A DNA stretch of 64,000 nt from Fistulifera solaris (lineage: Eukaryota), in contig AP026141.1 in the NCBI GenBank assembly GCA_030295235.1, positions 310,001 to 374,000 of the forward strand. Direction: 5' to 3'. The notes below the pieces were generated by a model, which was not told the DNA's origin, searched no databases, and saw only the letters and a program-made list of their open reading frames with translations. This document shows positions 1 through 19,016 of this stretch, one piece after another (the first letter of the stretch is position 1; each line of letters starts with the position of its first letter). Position numbers and translations under genes: made by a program.

Positions 1-2534
1 GCAACTCGGATGGATCGAAAATCGTCGGCCTGCGACAAGAAAGATTGAGTTGATTTGCACAATACAGTTTGACGTTTTCAGCTCACACAAATACTTACAT
101 GAGAATGGTGTTTCCGTCCAAAACAAGACGAAGACCCAGGGGCTCGTCCATACCGTCAATGCGGTGGGTCTCTCCTCCAAAGGTAGCAAGAAGAGCACCT
201 TCGGCAGTCACAGTGTAGGAAACGTCAATGGCGTTGGAACCAAGCGTGAGGCGGAACGATTCATCCGATGTTCGCTCGACATGGAACGGGTACTTAATGT
301 CTTTGTAGGCCACTTCCACATCGAACGAGTTGAGCGATGGGATGGCGGCAACCGAAACTTGACCTTTCTGGAACGACTCTTTAATTTCTGCAGATACAGT
401 CTCGACATGCTTGAACGCACGGTGCACGGCAGCCGAAACAACCACCAAATGAGGAGGCAACTCAATCTGAACCAACTTCTCGCGGATGATACCATCCAAC
501 CACGAGGTGTCAATCGTGTTCTCAATGAAAGCAGGCGTTTCCAACAGTTGAACCAAGTACTCCACCGTGGTGCGGATTTCACCACGCACTTCCATTTCTT
601 TCAACGCCAAGATAAGGGATCGGCGGGCCGCTTCACGGTTGGGTCCCTTGGCAAACAAGTGACCGAACTGACTGTCCGCAAACTCGTGAATTCCACCGTT
701 GGCGCCGACGCTAAAGTATCCCCAAACGTTGCTAGTGGACTGGAACTTGATGCGCTCAATCGATCCGGATGTGGGCTTGAAACCTTCATCGGGGTTCTCG
801 GCCGTGATACGCGCCGCAATGACGTGCGAGTCAATGGGCTGGTAGTCTTCTTCCATAAAGTCAATCTTATCCGTTCCCCACAAATCTTCGCGTCCGTAGA
901 GCTTGCGAATTTCGGGAATGTTGTACAGCGGAATACCCATGGCAACCTGCAATTGGGTGGCCGGCATGTTGACTCCCGTGATTCCTTCCGTCACCGGGTG
1001 CTCGACTTGCAAACGGGGGTTGAGTTCGAGGAAAAAGTACTTGTCCGTGTCGGCATTGTACAAGTATTCCACGGTACCGGCGCCAATGTAGCCAATGGAC
1101 TGCGTCAATCGTTGGGCGGCACGCTGCATCTCCTTGAAGGTGTCGGGCTTGGCAATGGTCGGAGGACCTTCTTCAAAAATCTTCTGGAAACGACGTTGCG
1201 TCGAGCAGTCACGACCGTTCAAGGCCACGGCGTTCCCATGCTGATCACCGACAATCTGGACTTCCAAGTGACGAGCATTCTTACAGAGCTGCATGACAAA
1301 GATGGGGGATCCAACGACTTCGTTTTGAACTTGAATGTAAGCGTTGCGAAGATCTTTCTCGTTGTCGACAAAACGAATACCCTTTCCACCACCTCCCTCG
1401 GAAGCCTTGATCATGAGACCGTTCTCGTATCCGATGCGTTCGGCGGCTTCCACGGCTTCCTCTACGGTACGGCAGGTAGCTTTCTCAAAAATAGCGTCGG
1501 GAATGGTTCCCTTTTCGTTGAGTTCGGCTTGCAACGGACCATCGTCGGGGCCCCCGTAACTTCCACTCCACGGAATGGAGGGCACATTGGCGGTTTGCGC
1601 CAAAATGTTGGCGGCAATCTTGTCTCCCAATACCGCCATGACCGGAGCGGTGGGTCCAATGAATTTAATGCCCAAAGCGCTCAGGGTTTCGGGCAATTCG
1701 GGCTTTTCGGACGCGTGTCCCCAACCGGGCCAGACGGCATCCACGCCTTGTTCTTGCGCAATCTTGCTAATGACCGCCACATTGGCGTAGTTGTTCAAGT
1801 TCTTGCCACCGGGAACTTCGACAAAGGAATCCGCGAGACGAATGAATTCGGCGTTGGCCTTCAAGTCTTCCGGGGTGGCCATGGCCACAAAGGTAATGGC
1901 GCGTTCGTCCCCGAGCGTCATGTAAGCCCACTGACGCATCGACAGAATCGATTTGGTGGCCGCCATACCGTTGTTCGCAATGAGGACTTTGCGAATGACG
2001 CGGTCACCGCCACGGCTCTTGACGTAATCTTCGAGGGATTTGATGGTCGAGACGCCGCTCGCACTGGTGGCGCTCGACGTTTCGACCGTCGAAAAGAGTG
2101 CGGTATCCATGGGATGAAGTGAGGATTTGTCGGCGCGGATAAGGCCATTCTTCAAAAATGCAGAGGGTGCTGAAAGAAACGAAAGAGGAACAAAGGAATA
2201 GGTTAAAGAGAGGGTCACAAAGAACAAAACAGAACGAACTCGAAACAGAAAAACAAGACAATGATCGACAAGATCCGTCGAGAGCGGCAGTAGAAGGATC
2301 CAGGAATTCTAGGGCACCCAGAGACACAGTCTGCAACAATATATACCTCTGTGTCGAATCAAGTCTGGGAAATCCGTACAAACAATGAGACTATGCCACA
2401 CGCGTCGCTCTCCGAACGTCCTCGGTTGCGACAACAAGGTGCGTCGACTTACAATTTTGCGTAAATGCTGATACACCACTCGCCGCACTCCACAATAAGT
2501 AGAGTGCCGCGGCAGCGTACCCTCGGTGAAACAT
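1..2534 (-). CDS. ACC1: Plastid homomeric acetyl-CoA carboxylase, 5' part (biotin carboxylase domain); runs off the left edge
   Basis: KVLIANNGMAATK, WPGWGHASE, RDCSTQRRFQK and ELNPRLQVEHPVTE motifs. Exon 1 (2534-2453) is MFHRGYAAAALYLLWSAASGVSA-F. GT-AG introns 2452-2170 and 98-30 splice in frame (..ILM|PTIFDPSEL). Confidence 0.95.
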
Positions 2535-2744
2535 GGTTTCGAACGTAATGTCAAACCTTTGGGTTGTTTTTATGCGACGACGACGATGATGGATTTGATG
2601 GGAAAAAGAGATGAATGGGAAAGATCTCCGAGGAGGAGTGGGAGAGTAGGAGTACGTATGTGGCAGAATTGCATCCATTGCGCCCATCATAGAGCCGTTG
2701 TCTCCGTACTCAACTCTACGTGGACCCTACGAAGGACGGAGAAG

Positions 2745-2945
2745 TGACGTATTCCGGTTCGAGATGTCATGTTGTGTGAGATCGCCGTCGCGGTTTACGT
2801 CACACTGTCGCGAGACGAGTTGAACGGATGATGTCACCGATTGCCGCGGGTGCGGGGGAGTTTTCGATGGGGGACGCCGACGGCGTCGCTCCGCGTCTCA
2901 AAGCAATAAGTAATCTAACGTCAGGCCACCATCAGTCTTACGTCA
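2745..2945. promoter_or_regulatory. Cluster of four TGACGT/ACGTCA (CRE-like bZIP) sites upstream of ACCase
   Basis: Exact hexamers at 2745, 2797, 2918 and 2940. Confidence 0.5.
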
Positions 2946-3095
2946 CTCTTTTCTGCTTCTGACAGTGACCACCAGCTTCACTCACGATCTAGTTCAGTCA
3001 TGTGTCATGGCTATTGTACCAGGTAGTTTTTTATCACTGTTGGATCACAAAAAACATCATGGCTAATGGCAATTGTTATTTTTAAAGCTCTTTTC

Positions 3096-6000
3096 CTAGT
3101 CACCAAAACCCTCTTCCTGCATTTTCTTGTACAATTCCTTGTAGTCCACCTGATTGCGTCGGCGCTTTCGGCTTGGTGCATCGGGATCTTCCGGTGCATC
3201 CATTCCTTCCGCCAGAGCGGAGAAATTGGCGCGTCGCGACACTTCCTCCATGGCTCGCAACTGATCGCGCTCGTGCTCCTTCTTTTTCTCCCGTTTCTCA
3301 AACAAATGATGCTCGAAGGTGCTCTCCCAATCGCAATCTTGCGCATCGTACAGTTCGCGAGACTTGCAGCCATCGACCAAGGCTCGCACGTGACTCGCGA
3401 CGGACCGTGCGAACGGTGATACGATGCCGCCGTGAATTTTGTAACCACCCTCGAGGACCGATACAATCCGTCCGTTGCAACAGGTATTGGCAATCTTGAC
3501 CAATTGCTCGGTAATCCATTCGTAATCTTCCTCGACCATGCCGACGTAACCGAAATTCATAGTGTCGCGTCGATGCGCGTCAAATCCGGCGCTGATGAAA
3601 ATAATGTCCGGATCGAATTCCCGCAAGTGCGGGAATATCTTCTGCGATAATTGTCCCGGAGCTCGAGGCGTTGTTTCATACTGCGGGACTGCGGATCACC
3701 GTCCGCCTCGGGGAGTTCCAAACCAATGTTGATAATCTTACAACAGTTGGACTTGGAGTCTTCGCCCATTCGTGTCCAGGTTTGACTGAGAATAAAGTCC
3801 GTCAGGTTGGGATGTTCCACCATGGCCGGATGTGCGATGGCATCTGAAGTGTGCGTCTTGCCCGAAGCTGGATAAAACCAACCGGGTTGATCAAAACCGC
3901 GGTTGCCGTATCCGTGCGTCGACGAGAAGAATACGTTCTGAATGTCCGTCTCATCGAGCCATGGTCGGTACGTACTCTGAGATAGCTCCCCGATCGCGTA
4001 AGGCGTTCGGAACGCGGTTCGTTCCGTGTTGGGAACAAGCTGTCGAATAATTTCCTCGGTTCCGTTCCCGTGGTGAACATCAAAATCGACAATGGCCACG
4101 CGCTGTATCCCTTCGTTCCGATACATACTGCGCGCGTACGCTGCTCCGATCGCCACATTATTGAGCAGACAGAATCCGTGTGAACCACCTTCGGGATCGT
4201 TGGCACATTTGACAATGCCTCTCGGTCCCGCATGATGACCCGGTGGTCGCACCGCACAAAAGGCGTTGCGCAAATCGCCGGCAATGACTTTATCCACCGC
4301 TTCGCACACACTTCCGGCCGCTCTCATGGCCGCCTCAAAACTCCAACGCGATATGGCCGTATCACCATCCAGATGCGCAATGGCGTTTGGATGGTCCGGA
4401 ATGGAAGATGCCAATCGGCTAATGGTCTCGACATAATTGTAATCGTGAACCTGCAACGCGTGGTTAGGAATGCACAACAGCCGATACGACAAATCATAAA
4501 TATATATACTGACCTTTAAAACATCGGATATGGCAACGCGTCGCGCATCTTTTTTCCACAAAAGTGAGCTGAATTCACTGCCCTGTAAAATACCAGTCTC
4601 GGCATCTACCAGCACGTGAAGACGCCGGACGTTTTCTGGCGGCGGGTCAGGGGAGTTTCGGCGAATAGGAGGACATGTCCTGTGCAAGAGACAAAGTTCA
4701 TGACACAAGACCATAGTTTGACCATCCGGGTCGACCAACAGGTCGCGTATAGGAGGAATCGTACCGGTCTCCGGCGGATCTCCGAGGGTTTCCACTAAAT
4801 CATTTGGAATGGACATGCCTTTCTTGTAGGCGACTTGCCCAGGTGTAAACCCCCTTCTATCGACAAGAGTGGTCGACGCGCCTGCTTGTATGAGAAGTCT
4901 AGCGACGGACCAGTTACCTCTCGAACAAGCAACATGCAGCGGAGTCCTGCCCATCACGTTTGTAGCGTCGATTTCGATTCCAGATGATCCCAAAAGAACT
5001 TGTGTCAATAAGGCCTCGGTCGAAGAGTGTGTAGCTGCGTCGCTGTCTTTTTTCAATGATACGGCGGCTGCATCAGTGTTTCCCACGACACCGGGTATTG
5101 TGTGCATGGAACTGACCACGCTACCGTCGGGGTGATGGTGGCTACGAACTTGTCCTGTGGCAAACGCAGACTTACTCAAAGCAGGGTTGTCGATCGTGTC
5201 GTAGCGCGCCGCGGCGTGTAATGCACGGTTGCCTGCCCTATCAGCGCGTGTGTTAAGCGTTGACAATCCTTCTTCGTCGGATAGGATGTAACTAGCTATT
5301 TGCGGCTGATTGAACATGCACGTGAGGTAGAGTGGAGTGTGCAAGGAATCGTCTTTCGCAGTTAAATCAGCTCCGTGTTCATGAAGAGTTACAACGCATT
5401 CATAAGAAAACTGACGATTGGCCAGGACGGCACCCATGCTGATAGCTGTGTGAATAGGCAAGCTCCCATCACAACGAAGACGAAAAGAAGCCCCAGCTTC
5501 GAGCAAGACTTTCACATGATCGAGCTTTCGGGAAAGAATTGCTATATGTAGAGCAGTATTCTCATCTTCGTCGCGCTCGTTTACGTGGACATCAAGATCC
5601 CTCTCCAGTTTCTTCTTAATCTGAACTTCTGTTTTTTCTTCCTTGGCTTTCTGCTGATCCGCCGTGTCATCGATGTCCATGCCGCTAGGGCCTTGACTCC
5701 TTTCTTCACTTTGTTTCTCTTCTGGCTCTTCCGTGTCGTTATTTTGCATTTCCGCATCTGCGCTGACAATGCCTCCTTTCTCGGTGTCCTCATGTTTCTC
5801 AGCTCCTTCGGCCGTCACATTAAGGCTTGGTTTAAAAGGCTGTGGAGAATGACCTATGGCCGCTGCATGCGCTGCAGCGGTCGAATCATTCTCGTCGGAC
5901 GAAGAATCATCGTCGTCTTCATCGTCCTCCTCTTTCCTTTCTCCATCGTCGTCTACTTCGACGTAAAGAAGTTTCTTGAATTTTGAAAATTTGAAAAAAT

Positions 6001-6246
6001 GAAACCGCGAAGAACACGTGTGAGAGGGTGCGACGGTCAGGCACTCTGGAGCTTTGTAAGCTAAACTTTTCGGTGGCATCGGCAGCGTGCGGCGCAACGC
6101 GTCGACAATGCACCGTTTGCACTTACTCGAAGTGTTTCAACGTCTTCAAATTCCACACAATCATGAAGAGGATATCTTCTCTCAATTGCATCGGCAACAT
6201 CTTCGAATGCGTCGTAATCTTCCTCGTCCGAAGAACCATCGCTCAT
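3096..6246 (-). CDS. Ankyrin-repeat histone deacetylase (Zn-dependent, class II/HOS3-like)
   Basis: Ankyrin motifs TALHIA, TPLYLTC, TPLHVAC. HDAC motifs RPPGHHA, GFCLLNNVA, DFDVHHGNGT, SAGFDAH, LEGGY. Introns 6126-5975 and 4513-4451; frame slip near 3640. Confidence 0.9.
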
Positions 6247-7019
6247 GGTCGCTGTCGTTCGCTCTCGACCGAATCGGTCCTTTGACAATCGGGGGGCGGA
6301 GTACTATTAACACCTATACACAATCCGATTCAGACGTCTCGACTACAATGTAACATATATTCGAAACGTGCTACGACGTGGAGGTCTTTCGAGGCGGAGA
6401 AATGACGCTTGAGACGGAGGACAGACGATGGTGCCTCAATTATCTCAACGCGGAGGAAAAATGAGTGGATTGGAGAATTCAAACAAATCAGAACCAGCGC
6501 GGAGTGCCACTTCACTATCAACGATATAGTACCTATATATTTTGGATCTCAAACGGAAACGTAAGTCAAAATTTTGTGTGGTCAGAAATCGACAATCGTT
6601 CGTCATCCTGACTGTCTTGCAAAGAGCACTATTGGCACCCTCTACAGTTGCGGCGATAGTGAGGTGATCGTTGCTTCGTCGGTCAGACATCTTACTTGTT
6701 ATCATATACACCGATTTTTGTCGACTAAGTAAAAAACTTGCTACGTTAAATACAGGCCAGCATCTCCCGGTTTCGCTTTTCCAAAGTTATTTCACAGATA
6801 TACTACCGGTATTCAAACAACCGTCACTTAGCAAACAAAGGCAAAGTCACGCCGGCCGTTCTAATTCTTCCCTCAAAACGACGCGTTTGGAACACAAAGA
6901 GACGAAGAACAACAACATTGTGATAGAGACTTGCTTTCTATGATTGTTTCTTGCAATCAAACTCTCAGACATTGGTTGAACGGAAAGAGTGGTTACGATC
7001 GTAAAATCAGTCGTTGAAG

Positions 7020-10000
7020 ATGAATTCGACGCCAGTCAAAGAGCACTACAGGAACACGCCCAAGAAAACACCACGGGTGGGGCCCGGATCGAAGGCGACC
7101 AGAGAGAACTTACCGAGAAAAGCAAAAGATACGCCTGTAATGGCAAGAAATCAAAATGACAAGGCTGAAGAGGGCATCCAAGGTGAGTCCAGAATGCTAT
7201 TCGTGAGAACGATAGCGAAAAACAATACTTACACTGAATATGTTCGTTCATCTTTGCAGTCGCAATTCGTATGCGCCCATTAAATAAGAAAGAAGCGCAG
7301 TCAAAGCCAATCTGGAAAGTGCTTCCACGTTTCGCTTCCGTCACGCAGATGACCCCCGACGGGCAACCCCTTTCTGAAAGAGTGACCGGTCGTACTTTTT
7401 TCACATACGACAAAGCGTTTCCCGAGACGGCCACGACTCGAGATGTGTACAATGCAATGGCAAAGGAGATCGTAGAGTCGGCAATCACTGGAGTCAACGG
7501 AACTGTATTCGCTTATGGTCAAACAAGCTCTGGTAAAACGTTTACAATGCAAGGATGTGGGACGATTGAGGAAGGACTCAATGGAAACGGCGGCGGTATC
7601 GTTCATATGGCTGCTGCAGATATTTTCCAGAACATTGCGAATCAGCCGAACCGAGTATTTCTTGTCAGAGCCAGCTTTCTAGAAATCTACAACGAAGACG
7701 TTCGCGACTTGCTTTCCAGTGACAACAAAACAATACCGATCAGAGAAGATCCACGTCGTGGAGTGTTTGTGCAGTGCGAAGAGGAAATTGTCAGCAATTT
7801 TGAAGACCTCCTTGGTGTGTTATTTCGTGGAGACAAGTCCCGAAGCTTTGCTTCCACTGCTATGAACGAGAGGTCGTCGCGAAGTCATACAATCCTTAGA
7901 ATCACTATCGAAAGTCGGGAGAAAACGGTAGACGATGCAAGTGGTGAAGACAGTGACGGTGGTGGAGCCGTTTTAGTTTCAACACTGAATCTCGTTGATT
8001 TAGCAGGATCTGAAAGTGTTCGTCACACAGGTGCTACCGGTGAAAGACAGAAAGAGGGTGGTATGATCAATCAAAGGTAAGCTATTTAACAGGCTCTGGC
8101 TTGTAGTGTTCGCCGTGGCATATTGCATTTATCTAATTTGTTTACGACTTGCAGTCTTTTGACCCTGTCGCGAGTGATTGTTGCGCTGGGATCGTCCAAT
8201 CAAACGCATATAAATTTCCGTGATTCGAAATTGACACGTATTCTGCAACCGTCGTTGTCAGGAAACTCGAGGATTTCCTTTATTTGTTGCGCTACGCCTA
8301 CCGAGATGTGTCTGGAAGAAACTCGATCGACTTTGCAATTTGCGGCCCGAGCTAAGCTTGTCAAAACTAATGCCAGAGTCAATGAAGTTCTTGATGATCG
8401 CTCCATCATCAAGAAACTTCAGCGTGAGCTTGAAGAGGCTCGGAGACAGGCGAATGGAGTTGGAGTTGAGCCGGAACATTTGAAAGCGTTGGAGAAAAAA
8501 GCCGCGTCGGCCGGATCGGCTGCACGTGAGGCGGAGGAGAAACTTAAACGTCTTCAAGCATCTATATTGAATAGCGGTTCACTGCTTGGGGAGAAAAAGG
8601 ACGAGAGAACGGTCATTGTTCAAAAACGACGACTCTCGGAGGGGTGTGTGGGCTTGGCTTCTAATCAGACTCCGCAGAAGGCTCTCAGTCAAATTCCCGA
8701 GTCGAATACCGCACCAAGATTGAACAAGAAGGCTCGTGCGCACCTTGTTCTCCGTGTCGAACCAGATACCGAACTGGGGCTTTACAAACAAGCTCTCCTA
8801 GCCAAAAGTTCGAGCTTAAGCAAGGAAAAGAAGGATCTTGCTATGGCTTTAGAGAGTGTCCAGCAAAGAGAAGCTGCACTCGCTGACGCGCTGGCAAAAC
8901 TTGACGTCGTGACGCTTGAGAGGGACGAGCTAAACGAGCAGCTTTCTGGTGCATCAGAGCGTATTGTGGAGTTCCAGCAGAGTATCTCCGAGAAAGAGAC
9001 CTTGCTCCAATCCGGTAACGACCAAATCGAGTCGTTATTTAATCAGCTACAGACTCAGCTTACCGATCGTCGCGACCTCGAACAAGTTGTGGACGTTCTT
9101 CAGTCGGAAAAACTTCAACTTAAGAAGGCCCTCCAAACCGCAATGGACGAGAAGAACCAAGCTGCCGATAGCTATGAGCACGAATGCTCCACATTGAAAA
9201 CTGACTTGGAGAAGCTGACATTCGCCTTTGAGGAAAAATCTGAGCTCGTTGAGACCCTGATGGAAAAGTCTGCAGAGTTGTCGACATGCCTTTCAAAGGA
9301 GGATCATAATCGATCTATCATGACGTTGGAACTGAGTAAATTGAAATCAATGCTTGTCAAGGCCGGGAAAGAGCGTGATGAGTTGCGGAAGCAGCTAGAG
9401 CAGACGAAAGAAGTCAATTTTGATTTGGATGATCGTTTAAACAAACAGTCATGCGATCACGAACAAACGAAGAGTGCCCTTGAGCATACTACAGCAGAGC
9501 TTTCAGATCAAAGAACTAAATGCGCTTCATTGGAGAGTCGCGTCATTAACTTTCAGAAAATCGTAAAAGAGCAAGAGGAGAAGCTTACCGAATCGTCAGT
9601 AACTTTAACCGCAATGTCGAGGGACCTGGATTGCCAAAAGAATCGAACGCCCTGCTTTCGGTGGAAAACAGTACATTAAATGACGAGCTTCGAAAGGTTC
9701 GAGAGGAGAACGGCGTTTTAAAAAGCGACTCTCTTCGACTAGAGCACGGCCTTGAAGAGGCGAATCTCAAGATAGAGAATCTACATGGGCAAGCTAGTGA
9801 CGCTGCACAACTTAAATTGAAATTGGATAGCTTGGTCGGGGATCTCGCTCAGCTGGAGACTGAGAAGACGGATGTTGAGAAGGAGCTTTTACTGGTCTCT
9901 GAAAAGGAGGCAAAGTTGACAGCTGAGTTGTCTCGACTATCCGAAGAAAATGGGTTGTTGCAGTCACAGATTGAAAACGGGAACGTATTGCTAGAAGAAT

Positions 10001-13277: not shown

Positions 13278-13547
13278 ATCTGTCTAGCCAAATGAAAGTA
13301 GCTTTATTTACTTTAGATAGTAATTTGTTTTACCACTCGTCGGCTATTACAAGTAGCTTATTTTGTCACGAGGATGACGCTTTGAATCCGTCACGATAGC
13401 TGACCGGTAACAATTTCGCGTAGGTACAGACGTTTTGATCACGACACCGCGTTTATTTATTCGATTGCATCAAAAAGATCTTTTTGCTATCATTCGTCTA
13501 CAATTTATCCTTTCGAGTGCCTTTCTCGTTTCCTTTTGTTTACAAAC

Positions 13548-14676
13548 ATGTCTTACGCTGAACCCGATATTGTTGTCGATTTCGCGGCGGGCGATGAAGT
13601 TGTACCGTTGACCCATAGCACCGTGACGGCCGATCCGTTGCAATCGGGCTTCCTTTGGTACACGCCGCCGATGGCCGCCATTCCGGAGACGCATCAAGAT
13701 TCGGGGGCGACCTGGAGTATTGCCGGACACGATTATCAAGTCTTGGCCATGACGTTGCCTCCGGGAGAACAAGTCGTGACCGAAATCGGGACGTTTGTGT
13801 TTGGGTCTCCCGAATTGCAAACCAAGGTCGATTTGACACTGTGTGCACGGGCGAGTGTGTGGGAAGGTTGTCAACGCATTCTCGGAGGCGAATCGTGTGT
13901 CAAAGTGTTGTTGGTGAATGGAGGTGCCACGGAAGGCTTCGTCGGCATTACTCCCAATTTTCCGGCCAAAATTATGCCTCTTCAAGTACGTATGGATGTA
14001 TATATCTCCTGCTCTGTTCTCGTTGTCGCTCACGCAGTCCGATATTTTTAGTTTGGCAAACATATATCACCCGACACGTCGCTGATTGCACAAAAAGGTG
14101 TTTACTTGTCTCATGTGGGTGACGTGACTGTTGGTACGAAGCATCAGAAGTGTTCCTTTTGAGCTCTGCTGGACTCAATGTCATTTCTTACACTATCTTT
14201 CTCTCACACTCTCTTTAGGCTGCGACATGGATACCTCCCCGATCACGTGCTGTTGTGCGGGCTTGGGTTGTTTTCGACAAAAGATTACCGGAACCACACC
14301 CAGTTTGGCCTTTTTGAATGCGGGCGGGACGATTGTGTACAAACAATTGCACGACCAGGAAACCATTACCGTCGATACGACTTCAATCATTGCCATGGAA
14401 GAGACGGTACAAATGGGCATTGTACCGAATGGACGATGTTGTACCATGGCGTTCGGTGGAGAATGTTGCTTCTCGACGACCTTGACCGGACCGGGAAAAG
14501 TCTTTTGCAGGTGCGTTGTCTGTGTGTGTTGAACTGTGCCGGTGCGCCTGTTCCCTTCTCTCTCACACACTCGAAAGAGCATGAGTTTTTACAAATTTCA
14601 ACAAGCGGTGCAACAAACGGTGGTGGAAGAAAAGGATCGCGGTGGCCCGAATACGGATCTTCTCAATAATTTGTAA
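13548..14676 (+). CDS. AIM24/TIGR00266-family protein, paralog 1
   Basis: IAGHDYQVL, TPNFPAKI, AFLNAGGT, VDTTSIIA, GGE..FSTTLTGPGKV..QSM. Introns 13986-14051, 14134-14218 and about 14511-14577; one slip near 14505. Confidence 0.85.
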
Positions 14677-14727
14677 GGAACGAAATGAGACGGGAAGAGG
14701 CACAGATGTGTAGCATTCTAATCAAAA

Positions 14728-15249
14728 TTACAAACTATTTATATACTTCCTTTTTGACCACAAAATTCGTGATAATAGCGTTGACACTGTTCTTGCAGAT
14801 TCGACCAGAATCGCCGGAGGCAATTCTTTCCAATTTCCATTTTCTTGCACAAAAGTAAACGGTGGAATGACGGTATCGGCCGGAATGTGCACCTGGGGTG
14901 CCACAATCACAGCATCTTTGAGAATGACGCGTTCCCCCAATCGCACATGATCCCCGATATGACAATAACTGCCAATGGCGGCCGCGTGCGATTGAACGTT
15001 CCGACCGATCCACGTATGCGCTCCGATCGTCACCGGAATGGCGTCTCCAGCGACCGAAGGTGCTTGTATTTGGGAGTGCGATTGAATGTGCGTGAACCGT
15101 CCGATCCGCGTGGCGTGCAACTGAACCCCTTCGTGAAGGATAGAACGTCCTTTCAATTCCATCTGTGCCGCATTCGCCAAGGTCGCTTGTCGACTGATAT
15201 AACAATGACTGGTAGTGGTGACAATGTAAGCGTCGTCATGTTCTGTCAT
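14728..15249 (-). CDS. DCTN5: Dynactin subunit 5 (p25)-like left-handed beta-helix protein
   Basis: YIVTTTSHCYISRQA start, hexapeptide repeats, AAAIGSYCHIG, VILKDAV, DTVIPPF. C-terminus uncertain. Confidence 0.75.
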   Translation of the reverse strand: MTEHDDAYIVTTTSHCYISRQATLANAAQMELKGRSILHEGVQLHATRIGRFTHIQSHSQIQAPSVAGDAIPVTIGAHTWIGRNVQSHAAAIGSYCHIGDHVRLGERVILKDAVIVAPQVHIPADTVIPPFTFVQENGNWKELPPAILVESARTVSTLLSRILWSKRKYINSL

Positions 15250-15282
15250 ACTGTAGATTGATAGGAAAAAAGGGACGAAGGA

Positions 15283-15322
15283 TGAATGAATAAAAATGAA
15301 TGAATGAATGAATGAATGAATG
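15283..15322. repeat. Interrupted (GAAT)n microsatellite
   Basis: gaatgaat..atgaatgaatgaatgaatgaatgaatg just upstream of the DCTN5 ATG. Confidence 0.85.
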
Positions 15323-15380
15323 ATTAACAAAAAGAAAACGGAGATTGCGTTGAAATAATAATATCCTGCCCTTTTTGGCA

Positions 15381-15510
15381 CGTGAAAACCCACACTTCCA
15401 GATTTTCTGGGTAAATGAAAACCCAAACTTCCAGATTTTCTGTAGGATTGAAAGACCCCATTCCCAGGTTTTCTGGGGACGTGATAACATCACATCCCCC
15501 GATTTTCTGG
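15381..15510. repeat. Four degenerate ~33-bp tandem units
   Basis: Consensus about TGAAAACCCA.ACTTCCAGATTTTCTGG; copies 1-2 near identical, copies 3-4 diverged. Confidence 0.8.
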
Positions 15511-15701
15511 CGGAGGAGTACCGCTGTGTGTCAAAAACTTGTCGATATTCTGCTTCGTATATAGCAAAAGAGATCGCACTATGACAAAACACGTTCTCGG
15601 GGCCCGAAAGATCCGCATCGCGATAGCGCAACGACGAAGCCGTAGGATAGCATTCATTCGAATAGCATCGTTGCTTTGCGAATACCTCTAATTATCAAAC
15701 A

Positions 15702-16460
15702 ATGTCTTACTCGAAAAAAGACGAACTCGTCTTGGCCACGACAGGATGGTCGCATTTGCAATTGCCCACCACGCCCGTCTACGCCATTGCCGGACACGAA
15801 AGTCAAATTGTGACGCTGCAATTGAACCAAGTCGGAGACGTCTGTCAGGGCGAACCCGGTACCATGATGTATTTATCGAGCGATATTACACAATCCACGA
15901 CATGTGAAGGATGTCTCGAACGGACGTGTGCGGGAGAAAGTTGTTGCGTCATGCATTTCACCAAATCGGCCGGCGATACGACCCCGAGTTATTGTGCCTT
16001 GACACCGAATTTCCCCACGGCCAAAGTCGTCCCCATTGATTTGAATCAAGTCCAAGGAGTCTTGATTTGTCAACAAGGCGCGTATATGGCATCGTCGGGC
16101 GATGTCCACGTCCAAATGTCGTTGGATTGTAATCTACTGCGATGCTGTTGCGGGGGGATGGGGTTGGTGCGTCAAAAATTGGTGGGGACGGGAACCGTCT
16201 TTTTGGCCGGTACCGGGACCATGCTGCAGAAAATTTTGGAGCCGGACGAAACCATTGTTGTGGATACCAACTGCATCATGGCGTTTGCGGGATCCTGTAC
16301 GATGGATTTGCGCCGGGTCGGCGGTGTCATGGGAATGATTGGTGGCGGGGAAGGGATCTTCAATACGACGATTACGGGTCCGGGACTCGTCGTGGTGCAG
16401 TCGATGAATGAACTCATGTTCAAACAAGCCCTGGTGGCCAATAAATTGTATCGGCGATGA
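15702..16460 (+). CDS. AIM24/TIGR00266-family protein, paralog 2 (intronless)
   Basis: Intact 252-aa ORF: IAGHESQIV, GEPGTMMY, TPNFPTAKV, GTGTVFLAGTGT, VDTNCIMAF, GGEGIFNTTITGPGLVVVQSM. Confidence 0.9.
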   Translation: MSYSKKDELVLATTGWSHLQLPTTPVYAIAGHESQIVTLQLNQVGDVCQGEPGTMMYLSSDITQSTTCEGCLERTCAGESCCVMHFTKSAGDTTPSYCALTPNFPTAKVVPIDLNQVQGVLICQQGAYMASSGDVHVQMSLDCNLLRCCCGGMGLVRQKLVGTGTVFLAGTGTMLQKILEPDETIVVDTNCIMAFAGSCTMDLRRVGGVMGMIGGGEGIFNTTITGPGLVVVQSMNELMFKQALVANKLYRR

Positions 16461-16928
16461 GGGGGTGTGTTGTTCAAGCCAAAGTACTGCAATCTTTCGT
16501 GGAGGAGAAACGTAGAATAGTTTGTTACTTACGGCAATCCTTTGTGCGAGAGGAAAGTCGTGCAGTGACTATAGTATTATACTACTACTCCGTAATGTTT
16601 TTTAAAAACTAAAAAAAACAAATCTGTACTACATCGAATCATTTCGAATGGTTGCGCCGTATTGTGGCGTAAAGAACGTTTCCTCCTTTAGGAATACTCG
16701 TGTGGGCACAAACGAATCATGAAAAAAAAAAAAAAAAAAAACAAGAGAGCCGAGCATTGCAAGCAGCGCATCCATCAACAACACAGGGTAGTTGGCAAAG
16801 CGTGTGCGGCTTTATGACTACAGTTATTCAGTCACGGGTCTGGTGACAGATAGTCCGTAATATGTTAGCGCTCCGTCGATCATTCGTTCTCGACGATTCA
16901 TAACGACTATTCTTAACATGCCAGTTAT

Positions 16929-18077
16929 CTAAGCATCCGTGGGTCCATCGACATTCCCACTATTATTGCTATCCTGTTGTATCACCTTGGGTGGGAACAA
17001 TTTTCGCATCTTGTCAATGCTGAGGGATTGAATCCAGATTTTGCCCGGTCCGGTCACTGCGCGAAAGAAAGAATAGCGTGTTATCACACGGATTACCAAC
17101 AACACTCCACACTACAGTATTCACTCACTCGTGGTGTTGAATATTCCTTCTCCCGCACAACAACACGCCATCCCCGATCCAATGAATTGCACATCCATCG
17201 TGACGGAGGATTCGAAACACAAGATACTATCGGTATCCACTAATATCTTTTCCCCCGCGGCTAAATTCTGAATACAGTGTAAGATACGATGAACCGTATA
17301 GATACGAGGATGACTCTTTCCTTCCTTACGTACTTTTTGTAAGACGGTCCCCATGGCCATCAAAAACGCCCATTCTCCATGACTGAGTGTTTGCACAATC
17401 AAATCGACACCACTGCAACAGACGCCGGCAATGCTTTCGGCGGGATTGAATCCGGCCCCCACATCCGTCACCAATTCCCCGATGGGCACCGTGGAACCGA
17501 GAAAGGAATCGCGCATGGCAATGATTTTTCCCGACGGACAGGAAGGCATATGAATGGGAACAATGACGCCGGGATAATCCGGTGTCAAGGCAACTGCCGA
17601 GAAAAGAGAAGAGTGAGTGAGTGAGTCAATGGATGAAAGGGAACGAAGGATCAAAGTCTCTCTTGTTACTCAACTGTAACCATCGTGCGTCGTGCTTTCA
17701 TTGGTGTAAGTGGCTTGAAACAAGGAACCCCCACCCGCCAATCGCCCAAACGTTTTCCCAAATCCTCCGAATTCGACTTTCATTTTGACGTCGTTGCTCA
17801 TATACGCCATGGCCCCGGCAAAGCACATGACTTGACGTCCCGGTCGTAAGGGAATTTGCACAAACGGTGCATCCGTCCCCAACAATTCGTACACCGGTAA
17901 GCCGTCTGAGTACGTGGGAGGAGGAGGAGGCGACCACAATTCAAATCCGGCCAAGAAGGGTTGCGTGTGGGGTTCTATTGCCGTAGCCAGGGGTACATTG
18001 TTGTTGTCATAATACGCAGAATCATCCTTCTTCGGATCGTTCAAGGCCATGGCAAAGGGAGAAGAATAGTCGGTCAT
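16929..18077 (-). CDS. AIM24/TIGR00266-family protein, paralog 3
   Basis: AGAMAYMS, GRLAGGGSLF, GYI|ALTPDYPG, VDTDSILCF, GEGIFNTT|.TGPGKIWIQSL. Three introns near 17676-17594, 17333-17268 and 17129-17057; stop at 16929-16931. Confidence 0.85.
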
Positions 18078-18511
18078 TTTTTATTGATAAATTAGTTGTT
18101 TTTGTATCCAATGTTGAGGGTGATTCTACAATTCCAGATGCTATGCTAGACAGATGCCGATATATGCAATGCAACAAGAGGCTTCTGCGATCTTTTGCGA
18201 AGTAGTGCCACACAAAGAGTAGTCGCACCGATGAATGCCAGTACTTCATACAAATAAATTTGGTACCGCTGCGCTTTGTCGGTACGTATGGTTGTACATC
18301 TTGTTTTATAGTAGAACCTAACACGTTTTACAAATTGAGTGTCGCACCACTACTGACTCCCTCTGCCTCTCGTCGTCCGCGCCGTTTTGTTGTATTGCAA
18401 TGCAACAGTTCATTCTTCTTGTCGAAGAGACCATCATCTTTCCTTTTCTCTTCTTGCATTCTTTATTTTCTCTTCTCTTTCTATTCATTTTACTTATTTT
18501 AGACAGCAAAT

Positions 18512-19016
18512 ATGGCAGAAGTCGCGGATGTTCCCATGGAAGATGCGGTACGTTAAAGAAAAGCGAGCGCTATCCCGTTGCTGCGGATCCATACTTACTC
18601 CATCTTTTTATTCCTTATAGTCCGAGCAACAACAAGTCCTTTCGAAACCGTCAGCTCCGCGCTTTGAAATTAAGAAATGGAATGCCGTCGCCATGTGGTC
18701 GTGGGATATTTGTGCGGATACGGTACGTGAAAGACTCGTTCTCGAATTCATTTCTCTCTTTCTTTTACTTACACTACTCGTTTAGTGCGCCATTTGTCGC
18801 AACTCGCTCAATGAACCATCCATTGAATATCAAGCGAATCCGTCCCCGACCAATGACAATGGCTTATCGATTGCCTTTGGAAATTGTGGACACGTCTTTC
18901 ACCTGGACTGCATCCAACGGTGGTTGAAAACACGTTCCGTTTGTCCTCTTTGCAACAAGGAATGGGATTTTGCCAAAATTGAACGCATTCCCGGGTACGG
19001 GCAGTTGGGCATTTAA
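18512..19016 (+). CDS. RBX1: RING-box protein 1 (cullin-RING E3 ligase subunit)
   Basis: Spliced product [39 protein letters not shown]...[27 protein letters not shown]; two introns. Confidence 0.95.

Follow-up and report, generated by a model that had tools for sequence, protein, structure and literature searches.

Introduction

Yeast Aim24, the founding member of the Pfam family that bears its name (PF01987), is a single-copy mitochondrial protein of the inner membrane that associates with MICOS (Harner et al. 2014, PMC3975624, as covered by the accessible part of that paper). Relatives in plants have been placed at the endoplasmic reticulum (ER). In Arabidopsis, the AIM24-B proteins PAWH1 and PAWH2 bind EBS7 and stabilise Hrd1, the ligase of ER-associated degradation (ERAD), and the same report describes the AIM24 monomer as three TRAP-like beta-sandwich repeats and models a flat homotrimeric ring (Lin et al. 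2019, PMC6677890, accessible part). According to the accessible part of Guan et al. 2022 (PMC10203443), plant AIM24-A is located at the ER with a role in the tolerance of ER stress and is related to a group in which bacteria occur together with plastid-bearing eukaryotes, among them diatoms, and a bacterial ancestry is proposed for the plant AIM24 subfamilies. Here we describe three linked AIM24 genes, termed g1, g2 and g3, of the diatom Fistulifera solaris. They lie at positions 13548-18077 of a 64,000-nucleotide stretch of contig AP026141.1 (assembly GCA_030295235.1, positions 310,001 to 374,000 of the forward strand; hereafter the window), and we show that in at least three genomes such a trio has remained together in an interval of 4-5 kb through orientation flips, full turnover of the flanking genes and, in Fistulifera, the insertion of the gene for dynactin subunit 5 (DCTN5).

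The described members of the family resemble the diatom proteins in part. Plant AIM24-A proteins (Physcomitrium PpAIM24, Marchantia MpAIM24-A1/A2) have, as far as the published description goes, a single AIM24 domain and no C-terminal membrane anchor, like g1-g3, but occur in one or two copies, in contrast to the linked diatom trio with its 30-37% mutual identity; the two are likened here by the statement of Guan et al. and not by a tree. PAWH1 and PAWH2 share the three-repeat AIM24 domain with g1-g3, but carry C-terminal membrane helices, an anchor that g1-g3 lack, and are by the published account closely related to each other, whereas g1-g3 are old paralogs; the tail-anchored proteins of our own collection (P0241, P0264) do not belong to the clade of g1-g3. 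The single-gene bacterial proteins of TIGR00266 type, PA3696 (PDB entry 1YOX) and SpyM3_0169 (1PG6), have the same fold as our model of g2 at about 24-30% identity to the diatom proteins, and the latter add an N-terminal segment with a G-[FW] motif and CCC motifs. In contrast to mitochondrial yeast Aim24, no presequence and no targeting sequence of the yeast type was found in g1-g3.

Results

Three AIM24 genes in the Fistulifera solaris window

A profile scan of all stop-to-stop open reading frames (ORFs) of at least 40 aa in the window returned six pieces matching AIM24, all within 13404-18080, and no further AIM24 copy in the 64 kb. The pieces belong to three genes, g1 (+), g2 (+) and g3 (-), with DCTN5 as the sole gene in between. 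Five of the six translated exon pieces of g1-g3 scored above the gathering score of PF01987, the sixth, the 60-aa last exon of g3, being too short for a match. The g2 protein aligned with the complete model (positions 1-205 of 205; E 2e-48, 165.3 bits, cut-off 25.7), and exons of the other two genes were recognised individually, namely exons 1 and 3 of g1 (E 7.8e-11 and 3.1e-18; 42.5 and 66.7 bits) and exon 1 and exons 2-3 of g3 (E 6.9e-14 and 2e-13; 52.5 and 51.0 bits). Pairwise identity was 36.6% (90/246) for g1 and g2, 29.8% (86/289) for g1 and g3, and 30.2% (75/248) for g2 and g3, with mutual BLASTP E-values of 2e-31 to 4e-29. The DCTN5 ORF matched PF21711 (E 2.4e-17, 63.6 bits, cut-off 40). 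All introns in the gene models read from the window are GT-AG (three in g1, none in g2, three in g3), and the outermost ATGs of the cluster are at 13548 (g1) and 18077 (g3). The first-pass annotation, made from the letters alone, had read the locus as three AIM24-like genes of low mutual similarity within 4.5 kb, oriented +,+,-, with 3, 0 and 3 introns, those same two ends and an interruption by DCTN5 alone; the profile matches, identities and gene models agree with it on each of these points.

The trio is kept together in other genomes

Metagenome contigs were scanned with the g2-family alignment, which gave 40 loci (13 of them 3 kb or longer), and all 40 were searched with the g1, g2, g3 and DCTN5 proteins. 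Two contigs, L010 and L019, carry the full trio within about 4 kb each (Table 1), and L018 repeats the L019 arrangement in shorter form. The genes on L010 and L019 each share 47-62% identity with the matching F. solaris gene and 25-38% with the two others, and both contigs have introns and eukaryote-like neighbours. The middle position is held by g2 in all three arrangements (window, L010 and L019), and the orientations differ each time. DCTN5 had no match in the 13 loci of at least 3 kb, L010 and L019 included. Comparison with the whole window by tblastx gave 76 matches for L010 and 36 for L019 at E<=1e-6, and at 40 bits or more none of them (0/76 and 0/36) fell outside window positions 13400-18100; the trio is therefore the only content common to the window and the two contigs. 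On L010 and L019 themselves, a ribosomal L28-family gene (PF00830, E 9e-20) adjoins the g1-like gene (L010 3464-3766, L019 8908-9210; 72% identical to each other), and it is not found near the trio in the window.

Linkage was also seen in part elsewhere. In Mayamaea pseudoterrestris, a g3-like and a g2-like gene have consecutive tags (MPSEU_000499100 and MPSEU_000499200) on one 1,119,184-bp contig. Three more pairs of g2-like and g3-like proteins come from equally long contigs (23166, 112087 and 4910), which is only suggestive of linkage. A further metagenome locus, L021 (4.2 kb), is too short to judge linkage. The inference that the paralogs had been kept linked is supported by the trio on L010 and L019 and by the Mayamaea pair, with one exception (L020, see "Discussion"); orthologues are not generally unlinked in related genomes, nor do the three copies form a recent species-specific clade.

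Three old subfamilies within one clade

Of 495 candidates in the search with g2, 205 were relatives at E<=1e-3; the 120 best of these are 49-92% identical to g2, and the matches listed include proteins of Mayamaea, Nitzschia inconspicua, Nitzschia sp. Nitz4, Fragilariopsis cylindrus, Pseudo-nitzschia and Asterionellopsis. The N-terminal exon of g3 found at least 39 longer proteins and the g1 exon at least five, both counts being lower bounds of word-limited searches. Cluster look-up added g1-type proteins of Phaeodactylum tricornutum (XP_002179708.1) and Attheya septentrionalis, and the wider g1/g2 lineage also includes Tetraparma gracilis GMI20423.1 and Aureococcus anophagefferens. No other taxon names came up in the 30 clusters consulted. 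Out of 1.84 billion representatives, a profile built from the three subfamilies matched 5508 proteins at E<=0.001, and 535 when the threshold was E<=1e-30.

The relationships were resolved in a careful tree (IQ-TREE, LG+C20+F+G4, 58 rows, 251 columns), which leaves out 20 of the 78 rows of a quick tree (two long-branch singles, two redundant trios and several representatives). All of g1, g2 and g3 fall in one 34-row clade (100/99), within which g3 belongs to an 8-row group (97/90) and g1 and g2 to a 21-row group (96/89). The members of the prokaryotic trios described below form three clades of their own, a (100/99), b (100/99) and c (99/98), each of which contains Cyanobacteriota, Pseudomonadota and Bacteroidota, and a 100/100 branch splits these clades and three single-copy rows from the other 43 rows. 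The 78-row quick tree and a 150-row FastTree agree with this topology. Two duplications therefore took place in one eukaryote-type AIM24 clade, g3 branching off first and g1 then separating from g2. Since g1-g3 lie in one clade across the 100/100 branch from the operon clades, the diatom trio arose by independent triplication, not from a transferred operon. The Tetraparma protein is sister to the g1 group (97/96), and if it is a true g1 orthologue, the split of g1 and g2 is older than the divergence of diatoms and Parmales. The three genes are anciently diverged, and the orthologue clade of each extends past Fistulifera, that of g2 covering seven named diatoms, so that the earlier description of old paralogs stands, and the phylogeny against bacterial paralogs that the first-pass annotation proposed as a check sets the diatom trio apart, within one clade.

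Several observations concern other members of the family. Eukaryote-type representatives P0260, P0308, P0265, P0241 and P0264 fall outside the clade of g1-g3. One of the outside subfamilies has arginine-rich, presequence-like N-termini (P0260, P0308) and is a candidate for mitochondrial forms, and another (P0241, P0264) has a hydrophobic, PAWH-like C-terminal tail. In A. anophagefferens, two AIM24-like proteins with consecutive accessions (KAH8071830.1 and KAH8071829.1) come from one 382,260-bp contig and share the 90% cluster of P0185; one of the two carries the source name "high-affinity nickel-transport protein", and the pair may reflect either recent tandem duplication or an artefact of the annotation. 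A look-up of g3 (P0126) in the ESM Atlas gave generic AIM24 clusters only; in one of the clusters listed (95 members), 38% of the taxon-labelled members are Nucleocytoviricota (giant viruses).

Three-gene operons in prokaryotes

With the g2-family alignment, 14 bacterial or archaeal genome loci were found, at 32% identity to g2 or less, a maximum that is weak evidence for the absence of a closer prokaryotic relative since the patterns of that alignment are g2-specific. Eight of the 14 have exactly three tandem AIM24 ORFs (four in Bacteroidota, three in Gammaproteobacteria, one in Cyanobacteriota) and the other six a single copy. The runs of tandem paralogs that the first-pass annotation had mentioned for some bacteria were thus seen directly. 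Together with the metagenome locus L037 (span 136-3291), nine trio loci are available (L037, L044, L046-L048 and L050-L053). A Peptidase_M48 ORF lies directly upstream in seven of them (L037, L044, L046, L047, L048, L050 and L051; E 4e-28 to 3e-35), and L052 and L053 have the trio without it. No M48 homologue was found in the window, L010 or L019 by tblastn with two M48 proteins from the trio loci (E<=1).

What the prokaryotic operons and the diatom trio have in common is a set of exactly three AIM24 paralogs that are linked, diverged anciently and fall into separate orthologue groups. They differ in that the prokaryotic genes form tight, co-directional operons, often behind Peptidase_M48, whereas in the diatoms each gene is a transcription unit of its own, introns are present, the orientation varies and there is no M48 neighbour, and in that their origins are independent, as the 100/100 branch indicates. 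None of g1-g3 is orthologous to a member of clades a, b or c.

Fold, N-termini and conserved residues

An AlphaFold2 model of g2 (pLDDT 92.9, pTM 0.88) has three repeated blocks of strands, each with a short helix (H71-76, H145-150 and H209-214). At E<=0.001 it had only seven Foldseek matches in the PDB, six 1YOX chains (E 1e-15 to 2e-13) and 1PG6 (E 2e-13), and the sequence profile of the g2 family found the same two entries (1YOX E 6e-41, 1PG6 1.5e-17). We conclude that g1-g3 belong to AIM24/TIGR00266 by profile, and g2, as judged from its predicted model, also by fold. The TRAP-like, trimerising fold that had been given as family background agrees with the modelled homotrimer in the accessible part of Lin et al. 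2019 (PMC6677890).

The first 30 residues contain K+R and D+E in numbers of 0 and 6 (g1), 2 and 2 (g2) and 2 and 5 (g3). The highest mean hydropathy over 19 residues on the Kyte-Doolittle scale is 1.16-1.27 and is reached within the beta domain. The tails at the C-terminus are hydrophilic, and the stop-to-stop ORFs of g1-g3 have no in-frame upstream ATG. By composition and Kyte-Doolittle hydropathy, no presequence- or signal-like N-terminus and no membrane helix was found in any of the three. The earlier statement that obvious signal peptides and mitochondrial leaders are missing is confirmed by these values, and its suggestion of a non-mitochondrial location fits the acidic N-termini and the lack of a hydrophobic segment. 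Judged from their sequences, g1-g3 are likely soluble and cytosolic.

All three subfamilies have an N-terminal segment ahead of the domain with a conserved G-[FW] motif, which reads GF.WY.P in g1, [ST]GW in g2 and GFELW.PP in g3, where G44, L47, W48 and P51 are invariant in 11/11 sequences. The diatom subfamilies also have Cys-rich motifs (CCC) where the bacterial proteins have FFGGEG. In an alignment of 143 sequences of the clade, conservation of g2 residues E51 and E79 is 90% or more, and all three members of the L037 operon also have Glu in these two columns. Only g3 replaces them (E51 by F86 and E79 by G116), and both substitutions are invariant in the 11 g3-family sequences; the Glu residues kept in all three bacterial paralogs are thus lost in diatom g3. 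At the same time, g3 is the most conserved of the three, with a mean column identity of 54% compared to 48% for g1, and has many invariant positions.

Eleven g2 orthologues of other diatoms (P0070, P0074, P0079, P0080, P0083, P0087, P0092, P0099, P0102, P0106 and P0117) carry a Lys/Ser-rich N-terminal extension of 60-130 residues with repeated P-Y-V motifs. By composition it is neither a signal nor a transit peptide, and it may, from its sequence, be a polybasic tail that binds membranes or nucleic acids. The g2 of F. solaris is without this extension, as are g1 and g3.

Gene models, transcripts and neighbouring genes

The coordinates of the genes are given in Table 1. Over their first exons, g1 and g3 match the deposited F. 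solaris proteins FisN_19Hh144 (P0121) and FisN_19Hh147 (P0126), respectively, at 100% identity. Both of these proteins come from one 704,126-bp contig, and g2 is 92% identical to FisN_19Lh146, which we read from the style of its locus tag as the g2 copy of the other subgenome. The g3 model equals P0126 exactly, and the g1 model differs from P0121 at residue 270 only.

Table 1 Coordinates of the AIM24 genes in the window and on two metagenome contigs.
Sequence	Feature	Position	Strand	Remarks
Window	g1, AIM24 paralog 1	13548..14676	+	Exons 13548-13985, 14052-14133, 14219-14510, 14580-14676 as read from the window
Window	Dynactin subunit 5 (DCTN5/p25) gene	14728..15270	-	Between g1 and g2; not part of the module
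Window	g2, AIM24 paralog 2	15702..16460	+	252 aa, intronless
Window	g3, AIM24 paralog 3	16929..18077	-	Exons 18077-17675, 17593-17334, 17267-17129, 17056-16929; FisN_19Hh147, 309 aa
L010 (11.7 kb)	g1-like	5100-4048	-	
L010 (11.7 kb)	g2-like	5594-6514	+	
L010 (11.7 kb)	g3-like	7145-8199	+	
L019 (16.9 kb)	g3-like	5434-4498	-	
L019 (16.9 kb)	g2-like	5922-6854	+	
L019 (16.9 kb)	g1-like	7297-8262	+	

The difference at residue 270 arises because the window is one T short in the T-run at 14503..14506 (+) of g1 exon 3 (T4 instead of T5). The extra T behind 14502 is present in the DNA-like run X1 at 18.8 of 18.8 depth, and in an RNA contig of run X3, position 14506 is followed by TGC and then by 14576. 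Once T5 is restored, intron 3 reads CAG|GTGCGT...AAAG|AGC, exon 4 starts at 14578, and the protein equals the deposited one of 303 aa. A second position, 14798 in the DCTN5 ORF, lacks one base in both the X1 and X2 contigs compared to the window and looks like another assembly indel of this kind; the last ~23 residues of DCTN5, when translated from the window, may therefore be out of frame. Other single-base differences from the window are at 14156 and 15371.

Runs X2 and X3 were taken as RNA-like on account of their spliced contigs, and their depth cannot rank the expression of genes. In their contigs, introns 2 (joint 14132 to 14218, GT..AG) and 3 of g1 have been removed by splicing, and DCTN5 and part of g2 are covered as well, so transcripts of these three genes are present. 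Both g1 and g2 are therefore transcribed; that X2 and X3 have no contig over g3 has no bearing either way on the expression of g3.

Beyond the g3 end of the trio, a RING-H2 exon (zf-rbx1, PF12678, E 3e-21; also ANAPC11-like) lies at window 18786-19016 (+), head-to-head with g3 and ~700 bp from its ATG. We considered this RBX1/APC11-like gene as a ubiquitin-ligase link to g3 and rejected it, as it is not shared with L010 or L019 and is probably a coincidental neighbour.

Discussion

We favour a combined reading of these data, to which we give a probability of roughly 40%. Selection would keep the three genes linked since their products are needed together. The products g1, g2 and g3 would be subunits of one soluble, cytosolic hetero-oligomer, which is plausible by analogy and could take the form of a 1:1:1 ring modelled on the AIM24 homotrimer. 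In such a complex, g1 and g2 would keep the Glu residues of the family and g3 would be a degenerate structural subunit. As a flat scaffold, the complex may dock onto and stabilise a membrane-bound machine of protein quality control; this function is suggested by analogy with plant AIM24 (ER, Hrd1/ERAD), yeast Aim24 (MICOS) and the bacterial trios that stand beside a membrane M48 protease. A more general proposal, which we regard as doubtful but worth stating, is that AIM24 rings are obligate assemblies of three different subunits that evolved independently in bacteria/archaea, as operons, and in ochrophyte algae, with the algal genes held clustered through diatom history and g3 being dead for catalysis or ligand binding.

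A number of observations weigh against the favoured reading. The full trio outside the window is known from only two independent contigs, with L018 repeating L019. On L020 (13.6 kb), a g2 orthologue has no g1 or g3 within 3 kb upstream and 9.6 kb downstream, so that either linkage is not universal or the partners were lost in that lineage. No shared promoter is conserved, g1/g2 being head-to-head in L010, g3/g2 in L019 and neither in the window, and an old tandem array could have persisted by inertia alone. The pairs from contigs of equal size are only suggestive and weigh little. Most rows of the 34-row clade are without a taxon name, which leaves room for bacterial members inside it, and the functional analogy rests on family membership and on the statements of Guan et al., the trees having been built without sequences of plant AIM24-A or yeast Aim24.

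The most serious competitor, to which we give a probability only slightly below that of the favoured reading, is that the paralogs are linked but functionally independent, each forming its own homo-oligomer with a different partner or under a different condition, and are held together by inertia or at most by shared chromatin regulation. The AIM24 assemblies that have been solved or modelled are homomeric, 1YOX having six identical chains and the ring modelled by Lin et al. 2019 (PMC6677890, accessible part) being a homotrimer, and the solitary g2 of L020, the variable promoter arrangement and the Lys/Ser-rich extension on many other diatom g2 orthologues, which suggests roles specific to g2, all point the same way. 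However, the cluster has outlived full flank turnover and several internal inversions in three lineages whose proteins are 47-62% identical; sets of three paralogs arose separately in prokaryotes and were kept there as operons; and two residues conserved to at least 90% in the rest of the family are gone from g3, which itself nevertheless is highly conserved as described above, a combination typical of a dedicated, non-equivalent subunit. These points argue against functional independence.

Two other explanations fare much worse. That g1-g3 work in mitochondria like yeast Aim24, supporting MICOS and the respiratory chain, is very improbable: the common Pfam family PF01987, named after the yeast protein, speaks for it, but the N-termini in the window are acidic and without a presequence, those of the aligned orthologues show no conserved basic leader, and the presequence-like proteins P0260 and P0308 do exist but lie outside the clade of g1-g3. 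Least credible of all is the transfer of a whole bacterial three-gene operon to an algal nucleus, with g1-g3 descending from members a, b and c. A set of three linked paralogs is found in both systems, and the accessible part of Guan et al. 2022 (PMC10203443) proposes a bacterial ancestry for the plant AIM24 subfamilies, but the 34-row clade (100/99) lies across the 100/100 branch from clades a, b and c and no operon member pairs with any of g1-g3, the highest identity to g2 that we found in prokaryotes is 32%, and the window, L010 and L019 have no M48 homologue. Such an origin is rejected by both the careful and the 78-row quick tree and is close to refuted.

Our literature search found no paper on a linked AIM24 trio in any eukaryote or on an AIM24 cluster in algae, and none that contains the F. 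solaris locus tags of the trio. To our knowledge, conserved clusters of non-metabolic paralogs are uncommon in eukaryotic genomes. The family itself is known, and Guan et al. (PMC10203443, accessible part) briefly touch on its diatom members; functional data on the family are genetic and cell-biological only (MICOS in yeast; ERAD and ER stress in plants). A diatom cluster that has been reshuffled yet not broken, in parallel to the prokaryotic operons, argues that three non-identical subunits are a natural working unit of the family. This gives a concrete prediction for genetically tractable diatoms, among which Phaeodactylum has at least a g1 orthologue.

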